A program made the position numbers and the translations under genes. The notes beneath the pieces were generated by a model. The model was not told where the DNA came from, did not search any database, and was given only the letters and a program-made list of their open reading frames with translations. A DNA stretch of 64,000 nucleotides from positions 128,001 through 192,000 of the forward strand of contig CM000435.1 in assembly GCA_000165345.1 (NCBI GenBank). Reading direction: 5' to 3'. Numbering within the stretch: position 1 is the first letter of the stretch; each line of letters starts with the position of its first letter. Positions 1 through 64,000 of the stretch are shown piece after piece.

Positions 1-22
1 TTTAAATATATATTGGTTCTTA

Positions 23-475
23 ATGTATTGCATTGCATCTGAATTTAGACTATATTTTCAAATCATTTTGGGATCTTGTTTAATTATATATGCATTCATT
101 TTAAATATATCTCTTGAAAAAATACCATTTAAAGCACTACAATCACAGTTATTACTTTGCTTCGTATTCAAATCAAATCCAACTTTTATTAACTATTTAT
201 TGATATTCTTCTTCATTCTTTTCGATTCTGTTACTTTATTTGAATCAAAATCTGGATTTCTTGCATCATTTTCATTCGTTACTTGGATGATATGTATTCC
301 ATCAGCTTTTCTAATTAGACCAATTTGGATTCTTGAAAATTCTTTGGATTCTAATTTTTACTACTTTTTAACTTTAGCTGGTAATTTCTCTATTATTATT
401 TTTATTGGTGAGTGGATTAAATCACTTTTCAATAATTTAGTAAAATATTCCCCAAATCCGGATAAAGTTAGTTAA
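23..475 (+). CDS. Hypothetical small hydrophobic protein, 150 aa; may be spurious
   Basis: It is a 151-codon stop-free ORF starting at ATG 23-25, unusual in 70% AT DNA. The product is F/I/L-rich and TM-like. I recognise no homology, and no gene lies on the opposite strand. Its status is uncertain. Confidence 0.2.
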   Translation: MYCIASEFRLYFQIILGSCLIIYAFILNISLEKIPFKALQSQLLLCFVFKSNPTFINYLLIFFFILFDSVTLFESKSGFLASFSFVTWMICIPSAFLIRPIWILENSLDSNFYYFLTLAGNFSIIIFIGEWIKSLFNNLVKYSPNPDKVS

Positions 476-732
476 ATATTAATATTAATCTCTTTAAAAA
501 TTCATTTTTTTTTTCCATTACAAAAAACTTTACTATTATAAATACAAATTAATATATAAGAGAAAAAAAATGTGAGAAAAAATTAATTAAATTCTAATTT
601 TTAAATATATTGTCGTCTAAGCAAAATATGATAAAATATCTCATTAATAGATTACATTCTTAAATAATAACTCTTTACTTTTATTTATCTCATTATTTCT
701 AAATTCTATCATTTTTCTTTTTTCGTAATGAT

Positions 733-1941
733 TTATTCCTCATTTTCATTTTGAACGATTCCACTCTCTGGATCAACATCATCCTGATCTATGATACCTT
801 GTTCATTAATTGCTTCGTGATCCATCTCTGACTCGTGATCCCCTTCATAACCATTTGGACTGTCTTGCATGCTCATATCTCTCATAGGAGGATCTGCAAT
901 TTGAGCTGCAGTATCTTCATGTACATCATTAAATGCCAAAGTATTCTTTGGTGCATGTCTCTTCTTATGATGAGATCCTGAATGTCTCTTATTATCATTA
1001 TTAATAATATCAACCATTGACATTGTTCTACCAGAAATAACAAGAATGAATGAGATAATGATTGTAATAGTTATATCACATTCAAAAAAGATTACACCAA
1101 ATACAAAGAACAATGCAACAGAAACAATTTCAGAAAATCTCCATGGAGCTTGTTGACCAATAGTTACAAGCTTATTTGCAATAATATTCTTAACAAATGG
1201 TATTGTACCAACAGTAACTAAACAACCAATAGATAATATGAACTCAGAGAAACTCTTTGATTGTACTGACAAAAAGAATTCAGGCTCAAATATTATAGTT
1301 GCAAATAATAAAGCAAAAACACCACAGAAAACTTGAACATTATAAAGTTTATTTGCATCTCTTTCAGTAACATGAAGTGCTTTCTCCAAACATACAGCTC
1401 TGAAAATTGCAGATGAAATAGCATACAAAATTGAAAGTCCCAATAATGTTGGTGGTACCAAATTTGTATCAAAACATGCTACTATATATGATAAAGCAGT
1501 AATCAATACAGTTTTAAATGATAATAAATTTCTCTGATCACAGAATAAATATCTGAATATATGATGTAATACCACAGCCAATGCTAAAATACATGGATAT
1601 ACTGCGATAACTGGAGTAGACTTTAATAAGATATTTGCAATAGTAAACATTAATAAATATACACCAACTGGTACAGCATATTCACTAAATCTACTCAAAG
1701 TCTCATCCTTAACCTTTCTTAAATCGCATCCTCCTAATACATATGCCAACATCATACCAACCAATAATTGTGAAAATGTAACTCCAATAGGATATGGAAT
1801 CACATCCAACAATAATCTGTACATTATGAACATATTACATAATGTAATGAATATGAATAGACTACTTAGTGATAAGATTGCACTGTTTTCATATTTTTCA
1901 CGTAAAGTTCCCAATAAGGTTTCTGAATGTTGATTATCCAT
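733..1941 (-). CDS. Polytopic membrane transporter of the DMT superfamily (nucleotide-sugar / triose-phosphate translocator-like)
   Basis: It has about 10 predicted TM helices spread through the protein. The C-terminal tail is hydrophilic and D/E-rich. The ORF track starts at a TTG at 1956. The first ATG is at 1941 (MDNQHSETLLG...). Confidence 0.5.
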   Translation of the reverse strand: MDNQHSETLLGTLREKYENSAILSLSSLFIFITLCNMFIMYRLLLDVIPYPIGVTFSQLLVGMMLAYVLGGCDLRKVKDETLSRFSEYAVPVGVYLLMFTIANILLKSTPVIAVYPCILALAVVLHHIFRYLFCDQRNLLSFKTVLITALSYIVACFDTNLVPPTLLGLSILYAISSAIFRAVCLEKALHVTERDANKLYNVQVFCGVFALLFATIIFEPEFFLSVQSKSFSEFILSIGCLVTVGTIPFVKNIIANKLVTIGQQAPWRFSEIVSVALFFVFGVIFFECDITITIIISFILVISGRTMSMVDIINNDNKRHSGSHHKKRHAPKNTLAFNDVHEDTAAQIADPPMRDMSMQDSPNGYEGDHESEMDHEAINEQGIIDQDDVDPESGIVQNENEE

Positions 1942-61237: not shown

Positions 61238-62185
61238 ATGCCAAAGGGCTTGGATGTATATCTGGACTCTTTAAAATTGGACAGAGAGATATCTACTTTG
61301 TTAGAATGCAAGACTCTTTCTGAAAATGAAGTAAAACAATTATGTGAATTAGCAAAAGATATTCTAGAAGAAGAACAAAATGTACAGCAAATTGGACTTC
61401 CACTAACTGTTGTGGGTGACATACATGGGCAATTCTTTGATCTTAAGGAAATTTTTAGGATTGGTGGGGTTCCTCCAGAAACCAATTTTTTGTTTCTTGG
61501 TGATTATGTCGATAGAGGTTATTATTCCGTTGAATCTGTGACTCTTATTGTAGCCCTGAAGGTTAGATATAGAAATAGAGTCTTCCTTATCAGAGGTAAT
61601 CATGAAAGTCGTCAAATTACACAGGTTTACGGATTTTATGACGAGTGTCTACGGAAATATGGAACTCCAAATGTATGGAGGTATTTTACTGATCTTTTTG
61701 ATTATCTTCCACTCTCAGCATTAATTGACAATAAGATTTTTTGCCCACATGCAGGTTTATCGCCGAGTCTCCCTAGCTTAGACTCTATTAAAAGCTTGGA
61801 TAGGATTCAGGAAGTTCCTCATGAAGGGCCAATGTGTGATCTTTTATGGTCAGACCCTGATGAACGTTATGGCTGGGGAGTATCTCACAGAGGTGCAGGA
61901 TATACTTTTGGGGAAGATGTGAGTGAAATGTTTAATCATACAAATAATTTACAATTAATCTGTAGAGCCCACCAGCTAATTCTGGATGGATATCAATGGT
62001 CTCATAATAAGAATGTTGTGACCGTTTTCTCAGCTCCTAATTACTGCTACAGGTGCGAAAACCAGGCGGCTATCTTAAGAATTGATGATTTGGGAAATTT
62101 TACATTTCTCCAATTTGACCATGCGCCTGAGAAGGTACTTCCGAGACAGGAAAACCAGCTTCCAGTTCCGGACTATTTTGTTTAA
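61238..62185 (+). CDS. PP2Ac: Serine/threonine protein phosphatase PP2A-type catalytic subunit (PPP family)
   Basis: It is full length with all PPP signatures: GDIHGQ, GDYVDRG, GNHE, HAG-type, [11 protein letters not shown]. Similarity to PP2Ac is high ([74 protein letters not shown]). The C-terminus is PDYFV (PP2Ac TPDYFL). Confidence 0.85.
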
Positions 62186-62681
62186 TCAAATTTATTTTTT
62201 TTTCTTATTCCAACTACAATCTTTCTCAGATAATTCGCTTCTAATATTTATAAGTATTTTATATGGGTTGATTTCAAAACAATCCTATTGATTTTTCATT
62301 ACCTATTGTTGATAAATAAATCGGTACCAGATAACTTGTTTATATTAACTTGAAATTATATCATTAATTTTTTAATTTATTTCGAATATATCTATTTTTT
62401 TTTTTGTCTTTTTGATTTATTTTTCTCTTAAAATCCATGCATCGCCGGTATGTAAAACTATTTTTCCCAATGCATGCAGATTTAATGTGGACGATTACGT
62501 GTCAAAATTTTTGTTAATAATTATTGGAGAGAAGAACGAATGTGTATGTAATTCATCAATGGAAATAAAAATTATTTGATTAATGTAGAAAATGAAAGAG
62601 GGTATGAAATAGTGATTTAATAACTAAAATTAAGTTTATAAATGTTTAAATATAGTAGAACTTATAACATTATATAAATTA

Positions 62682-64000
62682 CTAAGAACCCAACTTAATA
62701 ATTGAGTTACTAACAGCATAAGGTTGTGACATTTGTTTTAAAAAATTTGAAGAAATTGAAACTGCCATATCCGTAGATAAAGTTGAATATTCAGGCTTTA
62801 AATGTTTTAAAATCCAAGGAGGAATCTTTTCCCTCTTGTCTTTTTTATTATACCTTAAATCAGCAAAAATCATAAGTCCATAATCTGCCTTTGACCTAAT
62901 AACACGCCCAACACACTGAGATGCTTGCCTCATTGCATCAAATGTAAGGAATTCGTTTTCCTGAATTCCGTAATTCTCCTTTAGAAAGCTAAGTCTTGAC
63001 TGGAGAATCTTTGATAATGTATACTGGTATGGAATTCCAACCATTACGACACACCTCCCATAATGTCTATCAAAATCGATTCCCTCAGCAACTTTTCCAC
63101 GAGCAATAGAAAAGAATATAGCTCCTCTTCCAATATCGCATGCTTTTCTATAATGATGTAAAGCTAAAGTAGTAGATACAATATCCTTAGTTTCTACAAA
63201 TACTAGCTTATGCTCCATAATTTGTGCCAATAAACCAGATTCATACCATTGAGAAAGCATTTGCTCCATATACAAGTATGAAGAAAAGAAGCAAACTACC
63301 CCATCTGGGACTTTTTTTGTAATTTCTAAAATAAGTTTACCATAATTCTGTTGAATTGAAACGTCAGCTCTGGACTCGAATTTTGATGAAAGAGGTGTCT
63401 GATCTGATCCTCTTGTAACAATCAATGGACAAATGCATGTCCTATCTAAAGTCATTGTTAGACTTTGGCTAACAACAGGAATAAATCCTAATAGTTTTGG
63501 ATAAAGGTCCAAAGGAGAAAGAGTTCCTGATGTTAGAACAATACTCTGGTAACGCTTTAAAATTGGCCTCATAGCAATAGATGAATCTAAACAGCTTAAT
63601 TGTATTACTGGGTCATAAAGTCCAGAAACCTCAGGATAAGGATCCACAATCACAATAAATCCTTTTGAATAACTTCCTAAAATTGTAAAGAATGTACAAA
63701 CTAATTCAAGAGAAGAATATTGATCACTGTCTACTATTCTTAAAGTATTCAACAGAGATCTAAGTCTTTCATCACAGAACTTTAGTAGTCCAGACTGAAT
63801 ATAGCAGGAAGCTTCAATATGTTTGACAAATGTCAGAGGTCCTTCAATTCTAGTTGAATATACTCGAATATACTCCTGCAAATACAGAATAAGTTTCTTC
63901 ATAATTGTAATAAAGTGTTCAGCTCTTCTAATTGATCCAGGAATTAAACCTTTTTTAATCTTTTCCATTTCCTCTGGAAGTACAGGAAACCTTTCAAGAT
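62682..64000 (-). CDS. XPD: XPD / ERCC2 / Rad3 TFIIH DNA-repair helicase, C-terminal half only (5' part lies beyond the window edge)
   Basis: It matches the XPD HD2 domain: IVLTSGTLSPLDLYPKLLGF, CPLIVTRGSDQTPLSSKFESR, NYGKLILEITKKVPDGVVCFFSSYLYME, GRGAIFFSIARGKVAEGIDFDRHYGRCVVMVGIPYQYT, FLTFDAMRQASQCVGRVIRSKADYGLMIFADLRY. The ORF is open to position 64000. The Met at 63968 is internal. Confidence 0.8.
   Translation of the reverse strand, partial: LERFPVLPEEMEKIKKGLIPGSIRRAEHFITIMKKLILYLQEYIRVYSTRIEGPLTFVKHIEASCYIQSGLLKFCDERLRSLLNTLRIVDSDQYSSLELVCTFFTILGSYSKGFIVIVDPYPEVSGLYDPVIQLSCLDSSIAMRPILKRYQSIVLTSGTLSPLDLYPKLLGFIPVVSQSLTMTLDRTCICPLIVTRGSDQTPLSSKFESRADVSIQQNYGKLILEITKKVPDGVVCFFSSYLYMEQMLSQWYESGLLAQIMEHKLVFVETKDIVSTTLALHHYRKACDIGRGAIFFSIARGKVAEGIDFDRHYGRCVVMVGIPYQYTLSKILQSRLSFLKENYGIQENEFLTFDAMRQASQCVGRVIRSKADYGLMIFADLRYNKKDKREKIPPWILKHLKPEYSTLSTDMAVSISSNFLKQMSQPYAVSNSIIKLGS

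Follow-up and report, generated by a model that had tools for sequence, protein, structure and literature searches.

What are the short, G+C-rich and frequently palindromic boxes that recur between the genes of a 64-kb stretch of Cryptosporidium parvum chromosome 7, and is their density unusual for this organism? We analysed the whole stretch (hereafter the window; approximately 169-233 kb of record CP141124.1 in assembly GCA_035232765.1) and conclude that the boxes are probably E2F-type promoter elements of C. parvum, of the forms TT(T)GGCGCCAA(A) and TTTCCCGCC/GGCGGGAAA. Their enrichment, their placement, their scaling with promoter number and the selection acting on them were determined from the window, and their genome-wide abundance, their occurrence in open chromatin and the presence of E2F and DP genes are taken from the literature.

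The window was located on the 1.36-Mb chromosome 7 by gene names (cpbgf_700730, CPHLJ_7g560), and its proteins are identical to those of C. parvum Iowa II and related isolates, which bears out the Cryptosporidium-like source suggested in a preliminary description of the sequence. NCBI gene calls of contigs were carried over to window coordinates, resulting in 29 genes that cover 47.8 kb and 16.2 kb (25%) of intergenic DNA. The overall G+C content is about 30% (26.6% intergenic, 32.3% genic). Boxes were counted as a core set comprising GGCGCC, GGCGGG/CCCGCC and close CG variants, with dinucleotide-preserving shuffles (100-500) as the null.

Counting k-mers against a shuffled null, as had been proposed for the window, confirmed that the boxes are concentrated in intergenic DNA far above chance. 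The hexamer GGCGCC was observed 20 times in the window against 0.45 expected, and TTGGCGCCAA eight times against 0 expected. Intergenic DNA holds 32 core-set matches, and at least one core is present in 20 of the 24 promoter-bearing intergenic regions, whereas shuffled sequences (n=500) had a core in 0.6-1.2 of these regions on average and in 5 at most. A de novo scan of intergenic k-mers returned GGCGCCAA as the top 8-mer (18 observed vs 0.21 expected), followed by poly-A, TGGCGCCA and TGCATGCA. The idea that an AT-rich genome produces such boxes by chance or through its composition has a practically negligible probability, since none of the 100-500 shuffles came near the observed counts, the boxes are conserved across species (see below), and intergenic DNA contains them at about 12 times the genic density in spite of its lower G+C content.

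The anatomy of the boxes bears out the E2F-like class given in the preliminary description, with TTT(GG/CC)CGC words around a GGCGCC or GGCGGG core and TGCATGCA alongside. They take the shape of a 10-12-bp palindrome, TT(T)GGCGCCAA(A), or of an asymmetric site, TTTGGCGGGAAA, which may point either towards or away from the gene. T predominates in the 5' flank and A in the 3' flank, and a symmetrised matrix has T at -1/-2 and A at +1/+2. The degenerate site TTTSSCGC has 22 matches, 19 of them intergenic, and 17 of 21 SGCGCS cores are intergenic as well. The TTTSSCGC words used in the window are TTTGGCGC (15 matches) and TTTCCCGC (7 matches), with 0 matches each for TTTCGCGC and TTTGCCGC. The companion GCATGCA boxes described previously were also recovered (TGCATGCA, 8 intergenic matches vs 0.12 expected, 3 genic), and the words most strongly enriched within 25 nt of E2F cores are ACATG and GCATGC-type words of the known AP2_1 family; binding of the TGCATGCA-type AP2_1 motif by C. 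parvum AP2 domains has been published. All 26 coordinates listed earlier fall within a few bases of an E2F-like box, although those at 6954 (CCCGCG) and 7224 (TTTCCCGC) are weaker variants, and the box at 39471 is not intergenic as stated since it lies inside an annotated open reading frame (ORF) of 146 aa (39286-39726, cgd7_730). Boxes at 14625 (in coding sequence), 17943, 37194, 44965, 50682 and 50769 were absent from that list, and the perfect palindromes of 16-20 bp that it mentioned are indeed present, with lengths of 20, 18 and 16 bp (Table 1).

The placement of the boxes follows promoters. The median distance from a box to the downstream ATG is 296 nt (interquartile range 147-397 nt), roughly in line with the 100-300 nt suggested before. 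Box density is 3.35/kb in divergent (4 regions), 1.93/kb in tandem (20 regions) and 0.95/kb in convergent intergenic regions (5 regions), when an uncalled SRP9 gene (see below) is counted as a gene, which reclassifies one region. Two or more boxes are found in 4/4 divergent regions and in 4/20 tandem regions (Fisher p=0.007). This gradient points to promoter elements, at approximately one per transcription unit, and speaks against signals at the 3' ends of genes. The boxes could nevertheless be thought to act at 3' ends or on chromatin, as terminators or polyadenylation signals, boundaries, replication origins or cruciforms. Stop codons are close to some of them (15 nt from the box at 28235, 54 nt at 7222 and 60 nt at 44965), most intergenic regions are tandem so that a box upstream of one gene is also downstream of another, and two conserved boxes (17943 and 47664) lie in convergent, promoter-free regions. 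We consider such a role highly improbable, as convergent regions have the lowest density and density climbs with the number of promoters, boxes keep their distance to the downstream ATG from one species to another, and published open-chromatin peaks upstream of genes coincide with the motif. Moreover, most cores are palindromes of 6-10 bp, which are too short for cruciforms, and the boxes in convergent regions fit the published occurrence of the motif upstream of antisense long non-coding RNAs (lncRNAs).

To evaluate conservation, we compared the window with syntenic loci of C. ubiquitum, C. canis, C. xiaoi, C. ryanae, C. muris and C. andersoni, which were located via the orthologous Prp16 and RRM proteins and keep gene order across the compared species. 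When 20 orthologous intergenic regions of C. parvum and C. ubiquitum (identity mostly 56-81%) were aligned pairwise with MAFFT, 21 of 24 core hexamers of C. parvum fell on an identical hexamer, as opposed to 15.5% of all intergenic hexamers (binomial p=1e-14, an optimistic value because rare GC-rich words can help to anchor alignments). Preserved distances to the ATG provide evidence that is independent of alignment. For instance, the boxes upstream of gene 45025-46167 are at 41, 347 and 1499 nt in C. parvum, 48, 341 and 1488 nt in C. ubiquitum and 47, 377 and 1522 nt in C. canis. Core boxes occupy 15/18 promoter-bearing regions in C. ubiquitum, 14/17 in C. canis, 7/8 in C. xiaoi, 8/8 in C. 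ryanae, 4/8 in C. muris and 2/4 in C. andersoni. The boxes are therefore under strong purifying selection across species as discrete elements.

The motif itself is well documented. Oberstaller et al. 2013 described it as E2F-like motif 3 (DTTGSCGCCH) and motif 4 (TTTGGCGGGAAV), the commonest upstream motif of C. parvum, and found it over-represented in 163 of 200 expression clusters, representing 2,379 of 2,949 clustered genes (81%). These authors credit earlier sightings to Bankier et al. 2003, on chromosome 6, and to Mullapudi et al. 2007, upstream of glycolysis and DNA-replication genes. In sporozoite peaks from the assay for transposase-accessible chromatin with sequencing (ATAC-seq), over half of them bidirectional promoters, no other motif was as prominent, and it has also been described upstream of polycistronic transcripts (Xiao et al. 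2025). In the 100 bp preceding lncRNAs, which are mostly antisense with a 3' bias, it likewise ranked first (Li et al. 2021). Since the motif was already known as the commonest upstream motif, the density seen in the window represents the genome norm. The preliminary description had singled out density as the unusual point, which does not stand: the 83% of promoter-bearing regions occupied in the window (20/24) is indistinguishable from the published 81%, bearing in mind that the two figures are not the same statistic. The present boxes agree with those of Oberstaller et al. 2013 in organism, consensus, upstream location, co-occurrence with TGCATGCA and near-universal occupancy, and differ in nothing essential. 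Motif, abundance and presence in open chromatin are already published and nothing here is categorically new; our analysis adds, within this 64-kb stretch, the conservation of individual sites in up to six species, the dependence of density on promoter number and the absence of CGCG cores.

A link to S phase or the cell cycle had also been suggested, and the boxes might then represent a classical S-phase regulon in a window rich in cell-cycle genes. Genes of the window that could be named by Pfam encode CAF1B/HIR1-like WD40, Cns1/TTC4-like, kinase, CRAL_TRIO, methyltransferase, Prp16, cyclin-like, cyclin, WS_DGAT, LSM, PIG-L, POLQ-like helicase, KH, bruno-like RRM and metallophosphatase proteins. 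Among these, the two cyclin-type genes, the CAF1B/HIR1-like gene and the POLQ-like helicase gene each have an upstream box, and E2F and DP transcripts have been reported to peak early in asexual development. However, boxes equally precede the Prp16, LSM, PIG-L, WS_DGAT, CRAL_TRIO, kinase, methyltransferase, SRP9, RRM and phosphatase genes, and the motif-bearing clusters of Oberstaller et al. 2013 peak at every time point and have no expression pattern in common. The proposed link thus finds no support, and a classical regulon is improbable. These unrelated target functions lower the case for a classical E2F regulon and not that for an E2F-type site.

A further question is which protein reads the boxes. 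According to published reports, C. parvum encodes two to three E2F (cgd1_1560, cgd6_1430) and two DP proteins (cgd7_3650, cgd8_1850), which is unique among apicomplexans, and we regard E2F/DP as the putative binding proteins. Classical E2F/DP sites known from animals and plants are TTTSSCGC or TTTSGCGCSAAA (Zheng et al. 1999, E2F4-DP2 structure) and, in Arabidopsis, TTTCCCGCC/TTTGGCGGG (Ramirez-Parra et al. 2003). The boxes have in common with these a 12-bp site, a symmetric [C/G]GCGC[G/C] core, T-rich 5' and A-rich 3' flanks, and the window forms TTTCCCGCC and TTTGGCGGG are identical to common plant sites. In contrast, animal and plant sites mark a cell-cycle and DNA-replication regulon under Rb/DREAM control, whereas the C. 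parvum boxes precede most genes whatever their function, and TTTCGCGC and TTTGCCGC are not used in the window.

Alternatively, the boxes could be functional and read by a different protein, such as an ApiAP2, Myb, zinc-finger or general transcription factor, with a coincidental resemblance to E2F sites. Such a reader would suit a motif that is near-universal and tied to no expression pattern, and just two of the four TTTSSCGC variants occur in the window; Oberstaller et al. 2013 cautioned that the presence of a motif is no proof of binding. We nevertheless consider a different reader unlikely, because the 12-bp shape is that of a textbook E2F/DP site, because Cryptosporidium is the sole apicomplexan genus with both E2F/DP and such an abundance of the motif, and because protein-binding microarrays with C. 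parvum AP2 domains yielded TGCAT, CACACA and G-box motifs instead, the E2F-like motif being treated there as the site of a known non-AP2 protein.

Several observations weigh against the boxes being E2F-type promoter elements. Motif-bearing clusters lack a common expression profile, in contrast to a classical E2F regulon, C. parvum reportedly has neither Rb nor most DREAM partners, and the absence of the canonical high-affinity variants TTTCGCGC and TTTGCCGC means that specificity may differ from that of metazoan E2F. A 2025 review states that very few Cryptosporidium regulatory components have been experimentally validated, and we found no published demonstration of E2F/DP binding at the boxes, nor any in a search of papers from 2023 onwards. 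Within the window, the contrast in occupancy between promoter-bearing and convergent regions reaches p=0.07 only, the convergent sample being small (2.1 kb), and four promoter-bearing regions have no core box. Upstream of the MAPKK1_Int gene there is instead the one-mismatch variant TTTTGGCGCT, and upstream of the KH gene only a degenerate TTTCCGCC; no box of any kind was found upstream of genes 51181-55545 and 39286-39726. Three of the four, the tandem regions 55546-55950, 39727-40066 and 38513-39285, are core-free in C. parvum, C. ubiquitum and C. canis alike. They might lie within polycistronic transcripts like those of Xiao et al. 2025, as junctions between successive genes; 201 polycistrons have been reported. 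To these points can be added the optimism of the alignment p-value mentioned above.

On balance, we favour E2F-type promoter elements operating as follows. Each box would provide a short, usually palindromic site in nucleosome-free promoter DNA, some hundreds of bases before the start codon, at about one box per transcription unit. E2F/DP winged-helix heterodimers would bind these sites, help to open chromatin and start transcription. Since the GGCGCC core is symmetric, a single box could be used in either direction, and yet divergent gene pairs carry at least two. The box would thus be a general, near-universal promoter element and not a cell-cycle-specific switch, and boxes inside or behind genes probably drive unannotated or antisense transcripts.

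Table 1 E2F-like boxes and other sequence features of the window. Positions refer to the window; L numbers denote loci in the compared species.
Sequence	Position	Strand	Context	Other species
GGCGCC (AAATGGCGCCGGCGGC)	2806-2811		1.2-kb intergenic region, 867 nt from ATG of gene 733-1941(-)	
GGCGCC	5419-5424		306 nt upstream of ATG of CAF1B/HIR1-like WD40 gene 3121-5115(-); TACCGGT 2 nt past core	
Weak CCCGCG (6954) and TGGCGCCAAAA (6986)	6954-6991		126 and 158 nt upstream of ATG of Cns1/TTC4-like gene 5658-6830(-)	
TTTCCCGC half-site, weak	7222-7229	+	54 nt past stop of gene 7278-10445; 394 nt upstream of ATG at 6830	
TTTCCCGCCAAA	10511-10522	+	131-bp spacer, 71 nt upstream of ATG of gene 7278-10445(-)	Core aligned exactly in C. 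ubiquitum
GGCGGG and GGCGCC, 14 nt apart	12972-12991		Divergent promoter, kinase gene (ATG 12787, -) and gene 13138-14982(+)	Both cores aligned in C. ubiquitum; GGCGCC core also in C. xiaoi
TTTGGCGCCAAA, 12-bp palindrome	14622-14633		In coding sequence of gene 13138-14982; 505 nt upstream of ATG of MAPKK1_Int-domain gene	GGCGCC at similar distance from stop of same gene in C. ubiquitum (L014:18044) and C. canis (L020:17814)
TTTTGGCGCT, one-mismatch variant	15074-15083	+	55 nt upstream of ATG of MAPKK1_Int gene (15133)	Spacer with AAAAGGCGCCAAG in C. ubiquitum
CCCGCC	16385-16390	-	250 nt upstream of ATG of CRAL_TRIO gene 16638-17849(+)	Aligned exactly in C. ubiquitum; AA(A/T)GGCGGGC in C. canis, C. 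xiaoi and C. ryanae
GGCGGGAAA	17943-17951	+	149-bp convergent spacer between CRAL_TRIO stop and methyltransferase stop	Kept in C. ubiquitum (L014:14702) and C. canis (L020:14623)
CCCGCC	19187-19192	-	243 nt upstream of ATG of methyltransferase gene 17999-18946(-)	Aligned exactly in C. ubiquitum
GGCGGGAAA	22671-22679	+	138 nt upstream of ATG of Prp16 helicase gene 19407-22535(-)	Aligned exactly in C. ubiquitum
GGCGCC (TTGGCGCC on gene sense strand)	25354-25359		Heads ultraconserved block; 520 nt upstream of cyclin-like gene 22842-24836(-)	TTGGCGC at this position in six Cryptosporidium species
Two GGCGCC, 13 nt apart	26978-26996		Divergent promoter, cyclin gene (ATG 26520, -) and gene 27285-28220(+)	Box 26991 aligned in C. 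ubiquitum, box 26978 not; TGGCGCCAAAA in orthologous spacer of C. muris
GGCGGGAAA	28235-28243	+	15 nt past stop of gene 27285-28220; 395 nt upstream of WS_DGAT ATG	C. ubiquitum box at most 12 nt from aligned position
TTTGGCGGGAAA	31226-31237	+	87 nt upstream of LSM ATG (31319)	Aligned exactly in C. ubiquitum
Tandem GGCGCCGGCGCC	32872-32883		About 100 nt upstream of PIG-L ATG (32778, -)	
CCCGCC (ACACCCGCCACCCCA, overlapping G-box-like CCCCAC), weak flanks	37194-37199	-	466 nt upstream of POLQ-like helicase ATG (36730, -)	
TTGGCGCCAA	39469-39478		Within annotated 146-aa ORF 39286-39726(-); 961 nt upstream of KH gene ATG	Inside orthologous ORF of C. ubiquitum (L017:20719); CCCGCGCCAAG in C. canis
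TTGGCGCCAA (44530) and TTGGCGGGAAAA (44560)	44530-44571		310 and 340 nt upstream of gene 40067-44224(-)	Both aligned exactly in C. ubiquitum, at 297 and 328 nt
GGCGGG	44965-44970	+	743 nt upstream of gene 40067-44224(-); 60 nt past stop of gene 45025-46167	Aligned exactly in C. ubiquitum
TTGGCGCCAA	46204-46213		41 nt upstream of ATG of gene 45025-46167(-)	48 nt in C. ubiquitum, 47 nt in C. canis
TTGGCGCCAA	46510-46519		About 150 nt upstream of uncalled SRP9 (ATG 46665, +)	Aligned in C. ubiquitum and C. canis
ATGTTTTGGCGCCAAAACAT, 20-bp perfect palindrome	47657-47676		About 1 kb of gene-free DNA between SRP9 stop and RRM-gene stop	Aligned in C. ubiquitum; partial in C. canis as TTGGCGCAG, position roughly kept
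GGCGGG (50682) and GGCGCG (50769)	50682-50774		400 and 487 nt upstream of bruno-like RRM ATG (50285, -)	Box 50769 aligned in C. ubiquitum, box 50682 not
AATTTTGGCGCCAAAATT, 18-bp perfect palindrome	57704-57721		121 nt upstream of annotated ATG of gene 55951-57591(-)	Aligned in C. ubiquitum, present in C. canis
Inverted pair ATTCCCGCC-TTTG-GGCGGGAAT	58350-58371		Divergent promoter, about 300 nt upstream of gene 58667-59002(+)	Kept in C. ubiquitum (L017:2057/2067) and C. canis (L018:1926/1936)
ACTTTGGCGCCAAAGT, 16-bp perfect palindrome	59520-59535		151 nt upstream of gene 59679-60503(+)	151 nt in C. ubiquitum, 134 nt in C. canis
TGGCGCCA	60969-60976		265 nt upstream of metallophosphatase gene 61238-62185(+)	
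Ultraconserved non-coding block	about 24990-25410 (about 420 nt)	-	Between 25354 box and cyclin-like gene cgd7_650	Orthologues L014:7157-7726, L020:7253-7806, L016:5971-6194, L021:6032-6244, L015:7711-7935
TACCGGTA-like word	5427, 10527, 19217, 31193, 31217, 46482, 50481, 50825, 55792, 55809, 62445; 39684		39684 in coding sequence	

Some boxes lie in places where no target was apparent. The region 46168-48212, 2 kb in length and free of gene calls, contains an uncalled two-exon SRP9 gene at 46665-47140 (+), with exon 1 at 46665-46736 (encoding MVLFRDFREFETAGYSLYSENPTK and followed by a GTAAGT donor) and exon 2 at approximately 46980-47140. It is supported by a Pfam SRP9-21 match of 28.9 bits (cut-off 21) and by codon-like substitutions in C. 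ubiquitum and C. canis. With this gene in place, the boxes at 46206 and 46512 form a standard divergent-promoter pair. Other ORFs of at least 45 aa in long intergenic regions were of low complexity and unconvincing, and an Rfam scan around the palindrome at 47664 gave only a spurious CRISPR-repeat match.

The boxes at 17943-17951, 14622-14633 and 39469-39478, where no promoter would be expected, are kept in both C. ubiquitum and C. canis. Together with the palindrome at 47664, they may be candidate promoters of (antisense) lncRNAs. This fits the published picture, in which the motif dominates open upstream chromatin with many bidirectional peaks (Xiao et al. 2025) and also occurs upstream of antisense and intergenic lncRNAs (Li et al. 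2021), although we infer the link from these four boxes to transcripts or peaks.

We advance more tentatively, as a possibility that we hold to be somewhat doubtful, that the E2F box is a universal element defining promoters at one per transcription unit, such that a map of conserved boxes would predict transcription units better than ORF annotation. If so, boxes lacking a target would mark missed genes or antisense lncRNAs, as with 46512 before SRP9 and with 17943, 47664, 14625 and 39471. Box-free regions upstream of 51181-55545, 39286-39726 and 37418-38512 would be junctions internal to polycistrons, and the roughly 420-nt block with the 25354 box at its head would act on the cyclin-like gene as a regulatory leader or RNA under E2F control.

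This block is ultraconserved and non-coding. Its sequence identity is 88-100% in the comparison of C. parvum with C. ubiquitum, C. canis has it nearly as well conserved, and its first ~210 nt, from TTGGCGC through ATGAGCGGAT and ATCATGTATATCCGTACGTG to TGACGCCAAA, are recognisable in six species, including C. xiaoi, C. ryanae and C. muris. Identity between species is about 90%, compared with just 72-79% for the Prp16 proteins of the same species. The block has no conserved ORF and its substitutions are not codon-like. A structured non-coding RNA was considered and rejected, as there was no Rfam match (gathering threshold or E<=5) and no tRNA, and RNAalifold on six species returned -14 kcal/mol with no compensatory pair. 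Possible identities are a dense promoter, an RNA without structure and a long 5' leader with a regulatory role. The block also contains a copy of CGTACGTG; the word ACACGT/ACGTGT is found 8 times in intergenic DNA against 0.79 expected.

A third intergenic word, (A)TACCGGTA(T), is enriched separately from the E2F box (CCGGTA/TACCGG, 13 observed vs 2.1 expected; ACCGGTAT, 5 vs 0.21). It is kept in C. ubiquitum at 6 of 11 occurrences (p=0.003), and two conserved copies lie in the E2F-free spacer upstream of gene 51181-55545. The 25 motifs listed by Oberstaller et al. 2013 do not include this word, and a literature search for it as a Cryptosporidium motif gave primer sequences only.

The targets of metazoan DREAM carry bipartite CDE/CHR elements, in which an E2F-like GC box is joined by a second nearby element. 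A CCGG-containing word is likewise present 4-8 nt from several boxes, yet it is no fixed-spacing partner, and the TACCGGTA-like word shows no fixed-spacing partnership with the E2F box. We rejected a composite of E2F box and CCGG element ((T/G)(A/G)CCG(G/A), 4-8 nt on), since its p-values were 0.015-0.07 uncorrected, its spacing was variable and it was not replicated in C. canis.

Some further features of the boxes and spacers were observed. Fewer boxes are present in the gastric species C. muris and C. andersoni. Some boxes of C. xiaoi (L016:1219, L016:3100) and C. ryanae (L021:1468, L021:3212) have GCGCGCC or GGCGCGC cores, none of which occur in the C. parvum window. Tandem GGCGCCGGCGCC occurs twice, at 23544-23555 in a G+C-rich part of the cyclin-like coding sequence and at 32872-32883 near PIG-L. 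The 131-bp spacer 10446-10576, which separates the kinase stop from the ATG of gene 7278-10445, shares 94% identity with its C. ubiquitum counterpart, as against 56-81% for most other spacers, and contains TTTCCCGCCAAAAATGCCGGTAT.

The palindromes of 16-20 bp and the box-free spacers represent clean sites for functional tests. Conservation of individual sites across the genus supports the use of the boxes as annotation aids, one of which pointed to the uncalled SRP9 gene, although this practical gain is modest. Our results provide independent confirmation of the E2F-like box as a selected promoter element in the sole apicomplexan that keeps E2F/DP.

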